Assembly: GCA_035387745.1 (NCBI GenBank)
Contig: DAOOON010000035.1
Coordinates: forward strand, 1 to 6,681
Source of the DNA: an archaeon
GTDB lineage: Archaea; Iainarchaeota; Iainarchaeia; Iainarchaeales; CSSED10-239
Direction: 5' to 3'
Length of the DNA: 6,681 bases
The translations under genes were made by a program, and so were the position numbers. Below the pieces are notes generated by a model, which saw nothing but the letters and a program-made list of their open reading frames with translations, was not told the DNA's origin and did no database searches. Positions 1 through 6,681 of the stretch are shown here, piece by piece; position 1 is the stretch's first letter; the number at the start of each line of letters is the position of its first letter.

Positions 1-10
1 CTTTTACTAT

Positions 11-721
11 TTGTATATGCCTAAAGGAAGTTCCAGCATCGGTAGAAAACAACCAAAAAGAATAGGCGACAGTGTTTTTATTGGAACACCACACGGAAAA
101 GAACTTGGCTATTCTACACATGCCAAACAAATGATTAGAGAAAACCCAGGACTCTTAAAAGCAGTGTATGAATTATCAAAAAGTAGAAAACCATTTTTAG
201 AAGACCCAAAAAGCAGATTTCAAATTTTAAGACAAAAACCAAAAGCAGGCCAAAACACTGATGCCTCTTATATTCTTAAATTAAAAGAAAAAAAATACTA
301 TATTAAAGAAGTAAATGATACTAGTATAGATAGAGACTATAGTTTTGATATTAAACACAAACACGGAAGAGACGGAGTAAGTGAACATCTAGCAATAGAA
401 TTACTAAAAGAACAAGGAATAAATGTCATTCCTGCACATTTCTCATATGTTGATCCAATATCTAAAAAAAGCTTTATAGTTTATGAATTCACACAACTTA
501 GAACTCTTGATGAGTTATATAAAACTGGAGAAATTACTTCTATTAGATATAAAAATATAAAAAAACAAGTAAAAGAAATAGAAGAAGAAATAAATAGAAA
601 ATTTCATTCTTTTGGATTAGATAAATATAAACAAATCTGGGATATACGTACAGACAATGTTTTCTATAGTACAGGAAAAAATAAATTTTATGTTTTTGAT
701 CCAATTTTATTAAAAAAATAA
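11..721 (+). CDS. Uncharacterised small protein with a protein-kinase-like (PKL) core, resembling RIO/Bud32/APH-type minimal kinases. The start is uncertain.
   Basis: A 236-aa ORF, preferred over its antisense frames. Motifs in kinase order: YYIKE (candidate VAIK-type Lys99); EHLAIELLKEQGINVIP (candidate alpha-C Glu followed by the 'gi-vP' pattern typical of APH/ChoK-like kinases); IVYEF..L hinge-like segment; WDIRTDN (Asp211-x4-Asn216, same spacing as HRDLKPxN); and FYVFDP (Asp230, 14 residues after Asn216, versus 13 in PKA for the DFG Asp). The ORF-track start is TTG at 11, the first ATG is at 17, and the frame stays open to the left window edge, so the gene may be 5'-partial. The ORF itself is likely real; the fold assignment is motif-based inference. 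Confidence 0.5.
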   Translation: MYMPKGSSSIGRKQPKRIGDSVFIGTPHGKELGYSTHAKQMIRENPGLLKAVYELSKSRKPFLEDPKSRFQILRQKPKAGQNTDASYILKLKEKKYYIKEVNDTSIDRDYSFDIKHKHGRDGVSEHLAIELLKEQGINVIPAHFSYVDPISKKSFIVYEFTQLRTLDELYKTGEITSIRYKNIKKQVKEIEEEINRKFHSFGLDKYKQIWDIRTDNVFYSTGKNKFYVFDPILLKK

Positions 722-727
722 GGAGGT
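721..727 (+). promoter_or_regulatory. Shine-Dalgarno site (AGGAGGT) for the HIT gene
   Basis: AGGAGGT lies 8 nt upstream of ATG 736 and overlaps the last base of the upstream TAA stop (719-721). It is complementary to the canonical 16S 3' end. Similar but shorter sites: GGAG at 4797-4800 before FEN-1, GGTGA (minus strand, 3315-3319) before the 2600-3307 gene, and GGAG at 1258-1261 before ATG 1268. Confidence 0.75.
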
Positions 728-735
728 AAATAAAT

Positions 736-1191
736 ATGGCAAAAGGATGTATGTTTTGTAAGATAGCAAAAGGGAAGGTGCCAAGCTATAAGATATATGA
801 AAACAAGAAGGTGATTGCTTTTCTGGATATCAATCCAATAGCTAAAGGACACACACTAGTGATTCCAAAGAAACATTTTGAAAACGTCTTTGATTGTAAA
901 GACAAAATTCTAGCAGAAATGATAAAAGCAACACAAAAAATTGCTCTTCACTATAAAGAGAAACTAGGATGTACTGGTGTAAATATCCTAAACGCTTCAG
1001 GAGCTTCAGCAGAACAACAAGTACCACATCTTCATTTCCACATAATACCAAGAATTGAAGGAGACGGACACAAGATTTGGCCAGTCACAGAACATGTTAC
1101 AGAAAACTTAGAAAGACTAGCAGAAGAAATAAAAATGGAAGACGAACTAGAACCAAAGAAAAAGAAAAAAACAGAAGAAAATAATGGCTAA
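736..1191 (+). CDS. HIT-family (histidine triad, Hint-like) nucleotide hydrolase/transferase
   Basis: The N-terminus CMFCKIAKGKVPSYKIYENKKVIAFLDINPIAKGHTLVIPKKH is the classic Hint-branch signature. The histidine triad HLHFHIIPR (HxHxHxx) is present. A strong SD lies upstream. The protein has a Lys/Glu-rich C-terminal tail. Confidence 0.9.
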   Translation: MAKGCMFCKIAKGKVPSYKIYENKKVIAFLDINPIAKGHTLVIPKKHFENVFDCKDKILAEMIKATQKIALHYKEKLGCTGVNILNASGASAEQQVPHLHFHIIPRIEGDGHKIWPVTEHVTENLERLAEEIKMEDELEPKKKKKTEENNG

Positions 1192-2593
1192 AAAGATTTT
1201 CTTTTCCATTCTTTTTTCATTTATTATATTTGGAATAATAATACTACCAGTATTTTTGGAGAAAGACATGAATTTAAAAATTAGAAAACCAGCAGTTTCT
1301 GGAACTTTTTATCCTTCTAGTCAATTAGCCTTAACTTCTCAACTTGAAGGGTTTTTTAAAGATACAGAAATAGAATATTCTGGGGAAATTATTAATGCTT
1401 TAATTGCTCCACATGCTGGTTATATCTATTCTGGAAAAACCGCAATGTTTGGTTATAAACAACTCTATATGGACCTAATCTTAAGAAAAGAAGACAGCTT
1501 TAAAGTAATAATATTAGCACCAAATCACACAGAATACACAAACAAGATAATAATTCCAGACTATAATTCCTTTAGAACCCCACTTGGAGATATTAAACTT
1601 AATTCCACAAAGATAAAAGCAGAAATAAACAACTCTCCACATGAGCAGGAACACGCAATTGAGGTTCAGCTTCCTTTTTTACAATATATCTTTAAGAAAG
1701 CAAATAAAGAATTTACAATTATTCCAATTATTGTTGGAGACGTTAATGCAGAAGAAATAAAGGCATTAGCAAAAGACATAAACTCAGAAATTACAGAAAA
1801 TACAATCATAATTGTCTCAAGCGACCTTTCACACTACCAGCCACAAGAGAAAGCACAAGAAATTGATAATAAAACTATACACAACATCTTGGACAGAAAA
1901 ACAACCGCAAGCCTTGACGCCTGCGGCTCTAACCCAATAAAGGTACTAGAAGAGATATCAATATTAAGAAGCTGGAAAGAACCAAAACTTCTAAACTACT
2001 CAACTTCAGGAGACGTCACAAGAGACAAGAAGGCTGTTGTTGGCTATGCTAGTATATCTTTTACAGAAGAAAAAGAACATCTTCTCTTAAGACTTGCACA
2101 CAGAACTATACAAAACGCATTTGATGCAAGAAAAGAAAATTTTTTTGATTTAGAACAATCTGTACCTAAAGAATACCTAGAACGAAAAGGAAGTTTTGTA
2201 ACTCTAACAATAAACAAAAGACTAAGAGGATGTATTGGGAATATTAAAGGCACAAAAACCGTATTTCAAGGAATAATTGATAACTCAAAGTTTGCAGCAT
2301 TTCAAGATCCTCGCTTTGATAGCCTAACAGAAAAGGAATTTGAAAAAGTTGATATTGAGATTTCTTTGCTGTCTAAGCCAGTTGATTGTAATCTTTCAGA
2401 CATAAAGAAAGGAGACGGAGTAATTATTAGACAAGGACTAGCAACAGCAGTTTACCTGCCACAAGTTTGGGAGCAGTTACCAGACAAAGATTCTTTTTTA
2501 GCAAGCCTTTGTGAGAAAGCAGGATTAGAATGGAATTGCTATAAAGAAAAAGCCACAAAGTTTCAAAGATTTGAAGTAGAAATAATTGAATAA
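1184..2593 (+). CDS. Fusion protein with an N-terminal Memo-like domain (AmmeMemoRadiSam system protein B type) and a C-terminal AMMECR1 domain (system protein A type). A possible N-terminal membrane anchor depends on the start choice (1184 or 1268).
   Basis: Memo part (about aa 33-293): KPAVSGTFYP, APHAGYIYSG, NH, EHAIEVQLPFLQ, SSDLSHY, DACGSNPI and VVGYASISF, covering the His/His/Asp-His/Cys metal-site positions known from MEMO1. AMMECR1 part (about aa 296-469): KGSFVTLT...LRGCIGN, FQDPRF and AVYLPQVW. The two domains join with essentially no linker. ATG 1184 overlaps the HIT stop by 8 nt (ATGGCTAA). The alternative ATG 1268 has GGAG 6 nt upstream and gives the canonical Memo N-terminus. 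Confidence 0.85.
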   Translation: MAKKIFFSILFSFIIFGIIILPVFLEKDMNLKIRKPAVSGTFYPSSQLALTSQLEGFFKDTEIEYSGEIINALIAPHAGYIYSGKTAMFGYKQLYMDLILRKEDSFKVIILAPNHTEYTNKIIIPDYNSFRTPLGDIKLNSTKIKAEINNSPHEQEHAIEVQLPFLQYIFKKANKEFTIIPIIVGDVNAEEIKALAKDINSEITENTIIIVSSDLSHYQPQEKAQEIDNKTIHNILDRKTTASLDACGSNPIKVLEEISILRSWKEPKLLNYSTSGDVTRDKKAVVGYASISFTEEKEHLLLRLAHRTIQNAFDARKENFFDLEQSVPKEYLERKGSFVTLTINKRLRGCIGNIKGTKTVFQGIIDNSKFAAFQDPRFDSLTEKEFEKVDIEISLLSKPVDCNLSDIKKGDGVIIRQGLATAVYLPQVWEQLPDKDSFLASLCEKAGLEWNCYKEKATKFQRFEVEIIE

Positions 2594-2599
2594 AAGAAA

Positions 2600-3307
2600 T
2601 TAGATTCTCTCAAAAGCCATTCTCTCTTTATTAAATCTATAACCCTTTGTAGTATTTGGTACAAATCTTATTTTCAACCCAAGAACATTTTGATAATAAT
2701 CAAACATAATTCTTTTTAATTCTTTATTGTAGGTTTCTATAAATGTTTTACCAGTTTTATTTTTTTGAAAATTAGCTATATCTTGGGCTCTGGTTTTTGC
2801 AGCACTTTGTTCTTTAAGTATTGCCTCATAAATGTTCCGTTGTAAAATAGATACATCTCTGGTTTTTGGTATAAAGAAATTATTTTCTATAAAAGTTATT
2901 GTTTTGGTAGTAAATAATACGCCTATTGCTCCAGATATTTCTCCAGTTTTACGATCAATATTTGAAATTGCAGTAAAGTTTTTTTTATATTTGAAATGTT
3001 CAAAAAATAATACAGATATATCATTTGCAGAAGGTAGTTCTTTTAATGGTCCGATTGTGTGAGTATGCACTATTTTGGATTTTTTGTGTTTAAATGCCTT
3101 TTTAAGTAATTTTTCATCAATTATTGTTCGATTTTTTTCTCGAGATTTGCTTATATTATAATATTCGTTTTCTACTTTTACAATAGCTACTTCTTTTGTT
3201 GTATATTCTGGTGTTTTTTTGATTGCTTCAGTTAGTGTATTATAGCCTTTTGAAGGCATCTTTGGTGTTTTTCTTCTAAAAGGATTTTTTATTTTTTTTA
3301 AAAGCAT
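2600..3307 (-). CDS. Uncharacterised protein with a JAB/MPN (JAMM)-like metal-binding motif; paralog A
   Basis: A 235-aa ORF with a GGTGA SD 7 nt upstream of its ATG, 13 nt downstream of the S2P stop. Motif order is Glu39 (TKEVAIVKVE), then His81-x-His83 (KIVHTHT), then Ser93-x-x-Asp96 (PSANDIS). This resembles the JAMM E...HxHx(n)SxxD signature and the RadC-like HNHPSG..PS..DI pattern, but with a longer HxH-to-S spacer (9 residues versus 7). The protein has a basic N-terminus. Its conserved C-terminal block LKIRF....GYRFN.E.M.FERI is shared with ORF 6225-6644. The ORF is likely real; the fold call is tentative. Confidence 0.45.
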   Translation of the reverse strand: MLLKKIKNPFRRKTPKMPSKGYNTLTEAIKKTPEYTTKEVAIVKVENEYYNISKSREKNRTIIDEKLLKKAFKHKKSKIVHTHTIGPLKELPSANDISVLFFEHFKYKKNFTAISNIDRKTGEISGAIGVLFTTKTITFIENNFFIPKTRDVSILQRNIYEAILKEQSAAKTRAQDIANFQKNKTGKTFIETYNKELKRIMFDYYQNVLGLKIRFVPNTTKGYRFNKERMAFERI

Positions 3308-3320
3308 CTATTTCTCACCA

Positions 3321-4706
3321 TTATAGAAAATAAGGAATAATATTTAATAATGCCAAGAAAATTAATACACATATAAAGAACCACATTACTTTCTTCATTC
3401 TCTTTTCTTCATTATTTTTCTTTTTATTTAGAAAATCACAAAATATAATCTGTGCCATAAACCCACCATCGAAAGGTATTGTTGGAAGAAAGTTAGTTGT
3501 TGCAAGTATGAAATTTAATAATGCAACCCATAAAATAACACTTAACAATATTTTATAAAAACTATAATCTTTTGGAACTTTAATAGTTTCATCAACCAAA
3601 ACGTCAGCAGTTATTCCTATATTTCCTAGTTCATTTGTAGTTATATACTCTGTTCTTGTAATATTTGTATCTAAATTTTTAACAACAAATTCATTTTCTT
3701 GATCTTTCTTTATATTTTTGGTTAAATCATTTCTGCTTTTTATAAGATTGCCATTAACTGAGATAATTAAATCATTTTTAACAAGCTTACCAAAGGCTGG
3801 ATTATCAAAAGAAGAACCACAAACTTCGGTTGTCGCAGTTACTTGACTTACAACAAGACCAATCTCTCGTTGATTGTCTATTGATGTGGTATAGTTTGCT
3901 ATTGGTGCAGAAATCAATAAATACACTATAAAGAAAATAATTGCAACAATCAGGTTACTTGTAGGACCTGCCGCATACATCTTTAGTTTCTTTTTATTGT
4001 CTATTTTTTTAAATTTTTCTTCATCTGGCTCAACATAAGCACCAAGTGGTAATATGCCAAGTAGCATTACACCAATGGACTTTAGCTTTATTTTTGCAAC
4101 GCGTAGCATTATTCCATGACTAAACTCATGAATAAAAGCCGCAGGGATTAATATCAACCAACCATACCAAGGAATAAAGAAATTTGTTTTAGGAACCTTT
4201 ACACCTGGAATAACAAGGCCAATACCTGGGCAAGCAACTTTCCCCACAAACATCTTCGCAATAATATCATATGCTGAAAAAAGCAATGCCCCTAGAATAA
4301 AACCAGACAATCCCATTATTCCGGTTAGTATTATTATCAAATAACTAATAAATTTAGGAATTAAAGGATTACCAAAAAACATACTTCCTGCTAATAAATA
4401 AGAAATATAAGTTGCAATCAATAATGAAATAATAAATATAAAAATTCTTTTCTTTTTTGTAGCCTTATCTTTAATTAAATAATCTACACCAAAAGGGCCA
4501 AAGCCAACAGCAACACCAAATACAGACATTGCAGTTAATGCTTTTTTATGTTTTTCTGCTAATTTATTTACACGTTTGATTAGAGATTTTGTATCAAGTA
4601 AAATTAAAATCCATAAAGTTGTTCTTTGTTTAAATACTAATCTTGCAAAAGTTGCACAAAATGCAGCAAAAGCAAAAACTAAAATAATCCATAAAGTAGT
4701 AGTCAC
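3321..4706 (-). CDS. Site-2 protease family (peptidase M50) intramembrane zinc metalloprotease with a PDZ insert, archaeal/MBTPS2-like type
   Basis: A multi-pass hydrophobic protein. It contains VIPGVKVP upstream of the HExxH motif (FIHEFSHGIM), then AAGPTSNL, a soluble PDZ-like insert (GLVVSQV...GKLVKNDLIISVNGNLI) and the second catalytic motif NFLPTIPFDGG (NxxPxxxxDG). The predicted start is GTG at 4704-4706 and the first in-frame ATG is 59 codons downstream, so the exact start is uncertain. Confidence 0.85.
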   Translation of the reverse strand: MTTTLWIILVFAFAAFCATFARLVFKQRTTLWILILLDTKSLIKRVNKLAEKHKKALTAMSVFGVAVGFGPFGVDYLIKDKATKKKRIFIFIISLLIATYISYLLAGSMFFGNPLIPKFISYLIIILTGIMGLSGFILGALLFSAYDIIAKMFVGKVACPGIGLVIPGVKVPKTNFFIPWYGWLILIPAAFIHEFSHGIMLRVAKIKLKSIGVMLLGILPLGAYVEPDEEKFKKIDNKKKLKMYAAGPTSNLIVAIIFFIVYLLISAPIANYTTSIDNQREIGLVVSQVTATTEVCGSSFDNPAFGKLVKNDLIISVNGNLIKSRNDLTKNIKKDQENEFVVKNLDTNITRTEYITTNELGNIGITADVLVDETIKVPKDYSFYKILLSVILWVALLNFILATTNFLPTIPFDGGFMAQIIFCDFLNKKKNNEEKRMKKVMWFFICVLIFLALLNIIPYFL

Positions 4707-4807
4707 TAATTATCCCATTCCTTAAAAGTATATTTATTGATATAATATATAAAGTATATTATATTTATATTAGTTATGTTATTTAATATAATTGTTGGAG
4801 ATTAAAA
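4707..4807. promoter_or_regulatory. Divergent intergenic promoter region between S2P (-) and FEN-1 (+), with TATA-like boxes and a 10-bp perfect inverted repeat
   Basis: This is the only substantial non-coding stretch in the window and is almost pure A/T. TATA-like TTTATATT lies at 4764-4771 and ATTTAATATA at 4781-4790 on the + side, with equivalent AT boxes on the - side. The inverted repeat is ATATAATATA (4740-4749), 5-nt spacer, TATATTATAT (4755-4764). GGAG at 4797-4800 lies 7 nt before ATG 4808. Confidence 0.5.
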
Positions 4808-5848
4808 ATGGGAGTAGCAATTGGGTCTTTAATTGAAGATTGTAAGAAAAGGATAGATCTTTCTGAATTTAAAGGCAAAAAATTTGGGTTTGATGCCTAT
4901 AATATGCTGTTTCAGTTTGTAACAACTATCAGAGGGATAGATGGTGAACCTCTAAAGAACGAAAACGGAGAAATTACTAGTCATTATTCAGGAATATTCT
5001 ATAGAATATCTAATGTTTTAAGTGCAGGTATTAAACCAGTGTTTGTTTATGATGGTAAAAGCCATGAACTAAAAGCAAAGACTAAACAAGATAGAAGAGA
5101 CAGAAGAGAAGCAGCAAAAGAAAAACTAGAAAAAGCAATAGTAGAAGAAGACATAGAAAGTATGGGCAAATTTGCAAGGCAGTCTGCAACAATCGATTCA
5201 AAAATTATTGACGAATCAAAAGAGTTGTTAACAGCAATGGGAGTTTCGTCTTTTACAGCACCAGGAGAAGCAGAAGCACAGATTTCTTATATGACTGCTG
5301 TTGGACAAACAGACTACTGTGTCTCTCAAGACTTTGATTGTCTTTTGTTTGGTTCTCCAAATCTTGTAAAAAATATAGGAGTAAGCGGAAAAAGAAAAGT
5401 TCCGTTTAAAAAAATATATGTTGACGTTTATCCATATATCCTTGAAAGCGAGCAAGTTTTTTCTAAACTTAATATCACAAGAGAAAAACTTATCTGGATG
5501 TCTCTTTTGATAGGAACAGACTTTAATGACAAGGTTGAGGGTATTGGCCCAAAAACTGCTCTAAAGCTTGTACAGGAAAACAATAGCTTTGAAAACATCT
5601 TAAAGCAACTAAAAGAAAAAAACAAAGAAATTGATTTTGATTACAAAGAAGTTATAGATATATTTCTTAACCCAGATATTGAAAAAAATCCAATCTATTA
5701 TAAGCCCATCTTTGACAGACAAAAGATAGAGCACATACTTATAGACAAAGCAAACTTTGAGGAAAAGAGAACAATAAACTATCTAAACGAATTTGAAAAA
5801 AAAAGAAACGAAGTAGATAAACAGAAAACGTTAAGTAAATGGTTTTGA
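4808..5848 (+). CDS. fen: Flap endonuclease 1 (FEN-1), archaeal type
   Basis: Aligns by eye along its full length with archaeal FEN-1: MGV.IG, FDAYN (Asp), GE.TSH.SGIFYR, KPVFVYDG (Asp), PGEAEAQ (two Glu), SQDFDCLLFG (two Asp) and GTDFN (Asp). It has an H3TH region (GIGPKTALKLV) and a C-terminal PCNA-interacting PIP box QKTLSKWF (5822-5845) directly before the TGA stop. Confidence 0.95.
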   Translation: MGVAIGSLIEDCKKRIDLSEFKGKKFGFDAYNMLFQFVTTIRGIDGEPLKNENGEITSHYSGIFYRISNVLSAGIKPVFVYDGKSHELKAKTKQDRRDRREAAKEKLEKAIVEEDIESMGKFARQSATIDSKIIDESKELLTAMGVSSFTAPGEAEAQISYMTAVGQTDYCVSQDFDCLLFGSPNLVKNIGVSGKRKVPFKKIYVDVYPYILESEQVFSKLNITREKLIWMSLLIGTDFNDKVEGIGPKTALKLVQENNSFENILKQLKEKNKEIDFDYKEVIDIFLNPDIEKNPIYYKPIFDRQKIEHILIDKANFEEKRTINYLNEFEKKRNEVDKQKTLSKWF

Positions 5849-5851
5849 AAT

Positions 5852-6238
5852 ATGCCAACAACAAAACCTAAACCAAAGCAAGTAAAAAGGCTAGCAAAGA
5901 AGTGGTTTGTAGAAACAAAACCAAAAGTTCAATTTACTAAAGTACTTTCTCAGTTTCCAAATGTAGATAAAAAAGAAATTGCACTAATAAAACATGGTGG
6001 GGCATATACTGATATTAGTATAAATCGACGAAAAGAAGTAGTTACTCCAGAAGATTATACTAGCTTTTTCCTTCGTAAATCCAATCCAAATGATTTTAAA
6101 AAAGAAAAAATTTTAGAAAAATCAGGGAAATTTGTAAAAAGATTAAATGCGAAGGAAGAACCAATATCTATACACACACACCCAATGTCTGATGGTGTTG
6201 CTTTCTTAATGTATAATGATATAAATGGCAATATATAA
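5852..6238 (+). CDS. N-terminal fragment of the JAB/MPN-like paralog B (carries E...HxH...D), ending at a frameshift
   Basis: The ATG lies 3 nt after the FEN-1 stop. KKEIALIKHG matches TKEVAIVKVE of paralog A, and ISIHTHP....LMYNDIN matches KIVHTHT....PSANDIS. The ORF stops 5 codons after the conserved Asp, and the homology to paralog A continues in the next frame. Confidence 0.5.
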   Translation: MPTTKPKPKQVKRLAKKWFVETKPKVQFTKVLSQFPNVDKKEIALIKHGGAYTDISINRRKEVVTPEDYTSFFLRKSNPNDFKKEKILEKSGKFVKRLNAKEEPISIHTHPMSDGVAFLMYNDINGNI

Positions 6239-6644
6239 TTATTTTAAATCAGCATCTTCAATGAAACAAAATGTTTCTATAGAGCTGGATAAAAATGGCA
6301 ACCAGATAGGAAGAACTTTCTTTAATGTGACTAAAGAGACTGCTTTAGCCGCGATTGAAATGCGTGGTAAAAATACAGACATAAGTTTTATGAATTTTTT
6401 ATTAAAACAAATTGATCTTAAGTATGAAGAAATTAATCTCCGGTTTACTCAGAAATATTACGGGTTATTTAAAAAAGCAAAACTAAAAAAAGATAGAGAT
6501 AGAATTCTAGATCAATGTAATTATGAAATAAATTCTAGATTACAAAGGTATTTTATAGATGTTCTTAAAATACGTTTTAAATTTCAGGCCATGCCAGGAT
6601 ATAGATATAATAACGAATTAATGAGATTTGAAAAAATAAAATAA
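6225..6644 (+). CDS. C-terminal fragment of the JAB/MPN-like paralog B (+1 frame relative to 5852-6238). With the upstream ORF it probably forms a frameshifted gene or pseudogene.
   Basis: IYNYFKS..VSIELDKNGNQIGRTFF matches FFEHFKY..AISNIDRKTGEISGAIGVLF of paralog A. The C-terminus LKIRFKFQAMPGYRYNNELMRFEKIK matches LKIRFVPNTTKGYRFNKERMAFERI. There is no SD before ATG 6225, and it overlaps the upstream ORF by 14 nt. Confidence 0.5.
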   Translation: MAIYNYFKSASSMKQNVSIELDKNGNQIGRTFFNVTKETALAAIEMRGKNTDISFMNFLLKQIDLKYEEINLRFTQKYYGLFKKAKLKKDRDRILDQCNYEINSRLQRYFIDVLKIRFKFQAMPGYRYNNELMRFEKIK

Positions 6645-6654
6645 GAAATACCAA

Positions 6655-6672
6655 AGAAAACAACAGTTTTCT
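6655..6672 (+). terminator. Small hairpin with a T-run downstream of the last ORF (candidate terminator)
   Basis: AGAAAAC-aaca-GTTTTCT forms a 7-bp stem with a 4-nt loop, and its 3' arm contains a T4 run. It lies 10 nt after the TAA at 6642-6644. It is short, AT-rich and close to the window edge. Confidence 0.25.
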
Positions 6673-6681
6673 GGGCTCAGA

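Follow-up and report, generated by a model that had tools for sequence, protein, structure and literature searches.

JAMM-type metallo-(iso)peptidases of the JAB/MPN superfamily are described by the published motif E-x(n)-H-S/T-H-x7-S-x-x-D. In AfJAMM, strand beta2 carries E22, beta4 carries H67 and H69, and helix alpha2 carries D80; S77 is found at the oxyanion hole, the glutamate is braced by the residue that separates the histidines, and the JAMM fold resembles that of cytidine deaminase (PMC300881). These enzymes offer the closest comparison for two genes, here called copy A and copy B, found in a 6,681 bp stretch of archaeal DNA (GenBank assembly GCA_035387745.1, contig DAOOON010000035.1, positions 1 to 6,681 of the forward strand), which is referred to below as the window. 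The family to which both belong was previously unannotated, while the JAB/MPN superfamily is already known. The best explanation of the two genes, considered probable, is a family of zinc metallo-(iso)peptidases of JAMM type that is lineage-restricted, evolves fast, carries a new C-terminal module and is subject to tandem birth and death. The features of the two copies are as follows, the site and motif of copy A being read directly from the sequence:

2600-3307, minus strand: copy A, an intact family member of 235 aa (open reading frame, ORF; family hidden Markov model, HMM, E = 4e-58)
3191-3193, minus strand: E39 codon of copy A, the presumed general base
3020-3067, minus strand: JAMM-like core motif of copy A, H81-T-H83-x9-S93-x2-D96
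2603-2680, minus strand: C-terminal family-specific module of copy A (LKIRFVPNTTKGYRFNKERMAFERI), three short beta-strands at the extreme C-terminus
5852-6644, plus strand: copy B, a disrupted gene for a 264-aa protein, in two ORF fragments (5852-6238 and 6225-6644)
5852-6238, plus strand: N-terminal fragment of copy B, 128 aa, with E42, H108-T-H110 and D123
5975-5977, plus strand: E42 codon of copy B
6173-6220, plus strand: core motif of copy B, H108-T-H110-x9-M-x2-D123 (sequence and alignment)
6223-6225, plus strand: frameshift site of copy B, an A3 run against A5 in intact alleles, i.e., a 2-nt deletion (DNA alignment)
6225-6644, plus strand: C-terminal fragment of copy B, 139 aa, with the remaining core, the helical hairpin and the C-terminal module

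Copies A and B are real, distant paralogs in one unannotated family. The alignment of copy A with frame-corrected copy B gave a BLASTP E-value of 8e-7 (3.7e-6 in another run), with 25% identity along 243 columns that span almost the whole of both proteins, and a single family HMM retrieved copy A as well as both fragments of copy B (1.7e-17 and 7.7e-32). The relationship had been proposed by eye in a sequence-only reading of this DNA. The pairwise significance bears it out, and the blocks listed there all fall in conserved columns of the family alignment. The ORF coordinates and the short intergenic gaps given there (13 nt between the S2P gene and copy A, 3 nt between the FEN-1 gene and copy B) were likewise correct.

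Conservation was counted over 52 full-length members with at most 90% mutual identity, collected from scans of genome and metagenome collections. In copy A numbering, H83 is present in all 52 members, H81 and D96 in 51 each, E39 in 50, T, S or N at position 82 in 50, and S or T at position 93 in 45. The family therefore carries the JAMM catalytic motif, the distance between HxH and the serine being the part that deviates. The earlier suggestion that E...HxH...SxxD forms a JAMM-like site agrees with these counts (45 to 52 of 52), and the spacing in A and B is non-canonical as had been said (9 against 7 residues). Judging by these residues, nearly all members appear to keep the putative catalytic set intact; P0012 has lost H81 and D96. 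In the ortholog group of copy B the motif serine is replaced by methionine, with the serine retained in P0006, the ortholog from relative L003.

Outside the motif, K44, R56 and G126 (followed by R127) are further family-specific invariants. The C-terminal module always stands at the very C-terminus with the pattern ..F.P.PGY+FN....FEKI, in which G222 and Y223 are found in 52/52 members, N or D at 226 in 50/52, and F215 and F232 in 48/52 each. At residues G126-A127 of copy A (window 2926-2931, minus strand), the conserved arginine after the invariant glycine has been lost in A and its close orthologs, which read SGAIG or SGTVA at this site, while G-R is found in 44/52 members.

The AlphaFold2 model of copy A has a mean predicted local distance difference test (pLDDT) score of 94 and a predicted template-modelling (pTM) score of 0.87; the model of intact copy B (P0004) has a pLDDT of 81 and shows the same topology and order of elements. 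In both models, the first core strand begins with the glutamate, the histidine pair closes a strand and the aspartate opens the helix that comes next. This placement is that of the MPN fold, as in AfJAMM, with modest significance in the Foldseek comparison (best E of 9.7e-3 for A and 4.2e-3 for B). The first six matches of copy A in the PDB were chains of BRCC36 complexes (four), of the CSN and of the proteasome, and the comparison with 6fno_B, the Caldiarchaeum Rpn11 homolog, gave a Foldseek probability of 0.96 and a template-modelling (TM) score of 0.52. The CSN and proteasome chains are presumably CSN5 and Rpn11, and on the same identification of entries about half of the top 50 PDB matches of copy A would be MPN proteins. 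For intact copy B, the top match was 9ea4, Citrobacter BubCD (probability 0.97); next came a proteasome chain and Jab1 chains of Prp8. BubCD is a JAB/JAMM peptidase-E1 fusion whose N-terminal domain is the JAB/JAMM peptidase (bioRxiv 10.1101/2024.11.21.623953).

In the viral structure database BFVD, the best match of the copy A model was an uncharacterised protein of Siphoviridae sp. ctss15 (A0A8S5TR93, E = 1e-5, TM 0.52). Other matches were a Myoviridae protein named 'minor capsid protein' and proteins of Mimivirus LCMiAC02 and Harvfovirus, and ATV ORF273 appeared as a weak match in both the PDB and BFVD lists. These viral proteins may be unrecognised JAB-like proteins.

Sequence profiles pointed in the same direction as the models. 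Seven PADLOC JAB models were matched weakly by family members (best E = 0.0016), with P0009 aligning over residues 87-154, from HxH through the next two strands. Pfam Prok-JAB was matched at best with E = 0.08 by a single one of 34 members scanned. With hhalign, the family profile matched a 7-sequence RadC JAB profile with 83% probability (P = 9e-6) on the HxH..PSxxD block, and the single E. coli YicR sequence with 20% probability. The JAB/MPN call thus rests on several separate lines, each modest: motif, structure and sequence profiles. Taken together, a JAB/MPN-superfamily fold with an intact JAMM-type site is likely. The fold proposed beforehand is supported by the JAMM/MPN proteins at the top of the Foldseek lists, at marginal E-values; no curated model threshold was reached.

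Each protein has a diverged JAB/MPN (JAMM) core, followed by a two-helix hairpin that varies among members and then by the strictly conserved C-terminal beta module. As in AfJAMM and Rpn11-type metallo-(iso)peptidases, Zn2+ would be held by H81, H83 and D96, with E39 activating the water molecule, S93 lining the oxyanion hole and T82 bracing E39. In copy A, the AlphaFold2 secondary structure places the long variable hairpin at residues ~151-207, just before the C-terminal module. The hairpin varies greatly in length and sequence among members and is nearly absent in a subgroup of about 200 aa. In B-type proteins, the model shows about 35 extra residues, at low confidence, inserted between the glutamate and HxH, at the site where eukaryotic JAMM deubiquitinases such as AMSH-LP carry Ins-1. 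Specificity for substrates or partners probably lies in the hairpin and in this insertion, which is large in B. A further possibility, itself unlikely, is that the copies form a battery of rapidly diversifying deconjugating or processing metallopeptidases used by these genome-reduced archaea in conflict or host interaction, or assemble into MPN-MPN hetero-oligomers, as prokaryotic equivalents of Rpn8-Rpn11, CSN5-CSN6 and BRCC36-Abraxas. Either idea, if true, would make the invariant PGY+FN module at the C-terminus a new device for binding substrates or partners.

On a rival reading, proteins with this JAB fold would not be peptidases but would act on DNA or nucleotides, in the manner of RadC-like or cytidine-deaminase-like proteins. 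The best profile-profile match was to RadC-type JAB domains, the JAMM fold is akin to cytidine deaminase (PMC300881), and the three recurrent slots of the family described below lie beside FEN-1, thymidine kinase (TK) and RpiA genes, i.e., genes of nucleic-acid or nucleotide metabolism, with a dUTPase among the neighbours. However, RadC was the sole JAB profile built, so that being the best carries little weight, and the match does not extend beyond the JAMM motif that both have in common; the signatures of RadC (HNHPSG and C-terminal DHI) are absent. Moreover, the neighbours differ by lineage and are part of broadly conserved synteny blocks, and the top structural matches are isopeptidases. 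A non-peptidase function is accordingly judged unlikely, and JAMM-type peptidase chemistry is the preferred reading.

Several observations weigh against this preferred reading. The spacing between HxH and the serine ranges from 7 to 13 residues; it is 9 in A and B and the canonical 7 in the L003 paralogs 240 and 235. No curated JAB, RadC or Prok-JAB model reaches its threshold with A, B or other members, the hhalign match to RadC covers only the 26 columns of the motif block, and neither A nor B has a PDB match in Foldseek at E <= 1e-3. The site residues E39, H81, H83 and D96 are placed in the models at the level of secondary structure. In addition, no ubiquitin-like (Ubl), E1 or E2 partner gene was found near the tandem arrays in which the family occurs: among called genes within ~10 kb in L001, L003, L006, L008 and L009, there were no ThiF/E1, E2 or ThiS/MoaD/Ubl Pfam matches, this search covering the array surroundings and not whole genomes. 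The conserved 95-100-aa neighbours of the arrays, inspected as Ubl-like ORFs, look by eye like hydrophobic membrane proteins. Since there is no Ubl, E1 or E2 gene within ~10 kb, the classical JAMM substrate class is without support, and caution is needed on any deubiquitinase-like role.

The same figures could be taken to mean that the JAMM resemblance is convergent or spurious and that the proteins have another fold and chemistry, as all matches are sub-threshold (Foldseek E >= 4e-3, HMM E >= 1.6e-3, 26 hhalign columns). The identity, order and spacing of the motif residues and the secondary-structure placement of each catalytic residue nevertheless point to JAB, and JAB proteins head the structure matches of two paralogs only 25% identical, next to the PADLOC, Pfam and RadC profile matches. 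Such a coincidence is judged distinctly unlikely.

The family is very rare. The word-indexed protein search was insensitive (3 matches per paralog, 10 with a profile), and the family was recovered by an exhaustive profile search, which found 29 representatives at E <= 1e-3 among 1.84 billion protein cluster representatives. As had been anticipated, it is unnamed: searches of Pfam, NCBIfam, PHROGs and PDB sequences gave no significant match, hmmsearch of the PDB sequences with the family profile returned noise only, and PADLOC models gave no match at a significant threshold. Neither A nor B matched Pfam JAB (PF01398), Prok-JAB (PF14464) or RadC (PF04002) at the curated gathering threshold. Because none of these thresholds is reached, the family is placed in the JAB/MPN superfamily at most, outside the curated Pfam JAB, Prok-JAB and RadC families. 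A search of the literature on JAB or JAMM families of DPANN archaea and Iainarchaeota found nothing on it.

Titled records of members come from metagenome-assembled genomes (MAGs) of "Candidatus Iainarchaeum" and "Candidatus Diapherotrites", or from archaea without further name, and the family is restricted to a few uncultured DPANN-type archaea. In the NCBI third-party annotation MAG record, copy A itself is listed as a hypothetical protein, between HOZ36089 and HOZ36091. One member (L015, DAOWAC010000034.1, 4106-4681) lies on a contig of 35% GC that is binned as a Chloroflexota bacterium MAG; it is probably a mis-binned archaeal contig and not a bacterial homolog. Members have a basic, disordered N-terminus.

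Copy B is a single gene with a genuine and recent disruption that is fixed in the window strain. The frameshift region reads GATATAAATGG in the window and GATATAAAAATGG in both L016, a contig 99.0% identical, and L005, which carries an 84% identical ortholog. Adding AA back joins the fragments and yields exactly the 264-aa protein P0004. The frame correction suggested from the letters alone was right. Intact relatives of copy B have 262-264 aa (P0004, P0005 and P0006, with 99, 83 and 42% identity, respectively), the intact allele being from the strain 99.0% identical to that of the window. The A3 allele was also found in L025, L026, L028 and L029 (two JGI, one ENA and one Logan assembly), which are 99.98-100% identical to the window, and because these four independent assemblies carry it, copy B is taken as genuinely disrupted in this strain and an assembly artefact was rejected. 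Programmed frameshifting or transcriptional slippage is unlikely, since A3 is a short run and the intact alleles are just A5 at this place. The break falls just past the metal-binding aspartate, at the start of the core helix. Copy B is most likely a pseudogene.

Both genes are under purifying selection, yet they evolve faster than their neighbours. The ratio of non-synonymous to synonymous substitution rates (dN/dS) was ~0.31 for copy A against its L001 ortholog (62% identity) and ~0.17 for copy B against L005, compared with ~0.08 for FEN-1 and 0.11-0.16 for S2P; dS is near saturation, which makes these ratios rough and is a further point against the preferred reading. Between the window and L003, copy B is 43% identical and FEN-1 86%. 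The arrays diverge several-fold faster than the neighbouring genes.

The gene order of the window was compared with that of its relatives. Apart from copies A and B, the window holds the following genes:

11-721, plus strand: unnamed 236-aa protein with a faint HipA_C/kinase-like match (ORF and Pfam)
736-1191, plus strand: HIT hydrolase (ORF and Pfam)
1184-2593, plus strand: Memo-AMMECR1 fusion, 469 aa, overlapping the HIT gene by 8 nt
3321-4706, minus strand: S2P/M50 protease gene with a PDZ-like insert (Pfam match; context only)
4808-5848, plus strand: FEN-1 gene (Pfam match; context only)

The window has a G+C content of ~30%, and that of copies A and B is similar to their surroundings. The S2P and FEN-1 genes diverge from an intergenic region of 101 nt (4707-4807), which is very AT-rich, contains several TATA-like elements and has GGAG 8 nt upstream of the FEN-1 ATG; its composition is consistent with a divergent archaeal promoter region. 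The presence of FEN-1 points to an archaeal source. No Rfam family was found in the window. Occupancy of the two arms of this pair in close relatives was as follows:

L001 (with the ortholog of A): one copy on the S2P arm; none on the FEN-1 arm, where FEN-1 is followed by L40e, a tRNA and 16S rRNA
L003: three copies on the S2P arm; three on the FEN-1 arm, one of them split (40+177 aa)
L005: contig ends near S2P; on the FEN-1 arm a split A-like copy (125+98 aa), then B
L035: none on the S2P arm; one copy on the FEN-1 arm
L043: one copy on the S2P arm; FEN-1 arm outside the short contig

The S2P arm can thus hold 0, 1 or 3 copies, and the FEN-1 arm none, one, two (one split) or three (one split). 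The adjacency to S2P/FEN-1 is confined to the close clade of the window. A second group of genomes with low GC carries its arrays, of 1-4 copies, immediately upstream of the thymidine kinase gene, and FEN-1 is followed there directly by L40e; in L040 and L042, the array is ~6 kb away from FEN-1, beside TK. In a group of ~40% GC, 1-4 copies lie just downstream of rpiA. The recurrent pattern is one of tandem arrays of 1-6 copies in a small number of fixed slots, each in the intergenic space between housekeeping genes. Split or truncated copies are frequent: besides copy B of the window and those of L003 and L005, there is a split copy in L014 (123+70 aa) and an N-truncated one in L006. Tandem birth and death would drive the family, leaving arrays at fixed slots, often with split copies.

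Tandem amplification, fast divergence and frequent pseudogenes are also what virus, plasmid or defence-island cargo might show, with arrays produced by mobile-element activity; the uncharacterised phage and giant-virus proteins at the top of the BFVD list (E = 1e-5) and the weak matches to JAB models from defence systems would fit this origin. Nevertheless, no relative was found in 2.9 million IMG/VR viral contigs or, by tblastn, in 50,697 phage records, and no integrase or transposase Pfam domain was present in called genes within ~10 kb of the arrays. The slots are fixed in synteny between housekeeping genes, the GC content matches the surroundings and no other defence-system component was found nearby, which makes a mobile origin very unlikely.

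A mirrored unit of A, S2P, FEN-1 and B that is functional and maintained by selection, in which for example the JAB-like proteases would act with S2P or FEN-1, is largely refuted and highly improbable: the gaps are short (13 and 3 nt), the genes co-directional and the adjacency shared by L001, L003, L005, L030, L035 and L043, but occupancy is variable (none after FEN-1 in L001, none after S2P in L035, three per arm in L003), other lineages carry the family beside TK (L040, L042) or, at higher GC, after rpiA, the nearest homologs of copy A in L003 (37% identity) and L005 (42%) are on the FEN-1 arm and not on the S2P arm, and B is broken in the window strain with no visible change in its neighbours. 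The claim of the sequence-only reading that both copies had been retained in this arrangement therefore fell, as did the idea of a functional unit with S2P and FEN-1, and adjacency to these genes does not recur wherever the family occurs. The apparent mirror would correspond to two array slots flanking a conserved divergent S2P/FEN-1 pair, a local accident of gene order and not a functional system, and an S2P-FEN-1-JAB "system" drops off the list of candidate new systems.

Some features of the surroundings are recorded in their own right. The FEN-1-side slot is bounded by a 50-aa zinc-ribbon protein (L001 7268-7420, plus strand; L003 12241-12393; L028 4386-4538), presumably ribosomal protein L40e; beyond it, L001 has a tRNA (6989-7062, minus strand) and 16S rRNA (4946-6440, minus strand). 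In eukaryotes, L40e is made as a fusion with ubiquitin; its convergent position beside JAMM-like genes is probably a coincidence. Memo and AMMECR1 form one 469-aa protein in the window and all relatives; the NCBI annotation names the fusion AmmeMemoRadiSam system protein B and has it begin further downstream (441 aa), and no radical-SAM partner was found among the called genes.

Other families in these genomes are expanded as well. The product of ORF 11-721 (plus strand) had been considered as a third paralog, which was rejected since it has no significant similarity to A or B and belongs to a different expanded family. This second unnamed family, of ~235-250 aa, also occurs in L001 (12560-13276) and as three adjacent paralogs in L003 (1110-1862, 1912-2649 and 2670-3389), and it is likewise fast-evolving, with 67% and 53% identity where FEN-1 has 88% and 86%. 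Its sole resemblance is the faint HipA_C/kinase-like match (E = 0.13), and PDB sequences gave no match to it. Near the TK-side arrays lies a third expanded family, of ~190-200 aa (L011 4584-6591, minus strand; L012 9819-10427; L042 12130-15645), with three tandem copies in L011; its GNAT-like label comes from sequence only. In general, these genomes appear prone to multiplying small enzymes as tandem paralogs.

With the probable assignment to JAMM-type metallo-(iso)peptidases, a set of "hypothetical proteins", which can fill as many as six genes in tandem in certain archaeal genomes of very small size, gains a name and a testable chemistry. The near-perfectly conserved JAMM site is found together with fast evolution, variable copy number, frequent pseudogenes and no nearby Ubl partner, which is an unusual combination; it suggests that these organisms may use JAMM enzymes beyond the known Ubl-linked roles.

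Compared with known systems, the family comes close to AfJAMM, Pyrococcus JAMM1 and the Caldiarchaeum Rpn11 homolog, with which it shares the E...H-S/T-H...S-x-x-D order and, in the models, apparently the same secondary-structure elements; the distance from the glutamate to the histidines is also similar to that in AfJAMM (42 residues here, 45 in AfJAMM). It differs from stand-alone prokaryotic JAMM proteins in the HxH-to-Ser spacing (7-13 residues, not 7), in not being detected by any curated JAB model and in having ~100 additional C-terminal residues formed by the helical hairpin and the PGY+FN beta module, as well as in the basic disordered N-terminus, the tandem multi-copy arrays and the lack of a nearby SAMP/Ubl or E1 gene. 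RadC-like JAB proteins such as E. coli YicR align on the H-x-H...P-S-x-x-D block, by motif only, and the RadC N-terminal region is absent from the family together with the RadC signatures. The bacterial JAB peptidases from operons for Ubl conjugation or defence (BubCD, BilC and CBASS Cap3) are represented by the best PDB match of copy B (9ea4) and by the weak PADLOC JAB matches; they are encoded with or fused to Ubl, E1 and E2 partners, none of which occurs near the arrays. The eukaryotic MPN+ deubiquitinases BRCC36, CSN5 and Rpn11 are the top full-length structural matches of copy A and have, like it, an MPN core followed by long C-terminal helices, with a global root-mean-square deviation of ~17 Å, so that the parts match and not their assembly. 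The co-encoded paralogs are reminiscent of MPN+/MPN- pairs; unlike MPN- proteins, nearly all paralogs of this family keep their catalytic residues.

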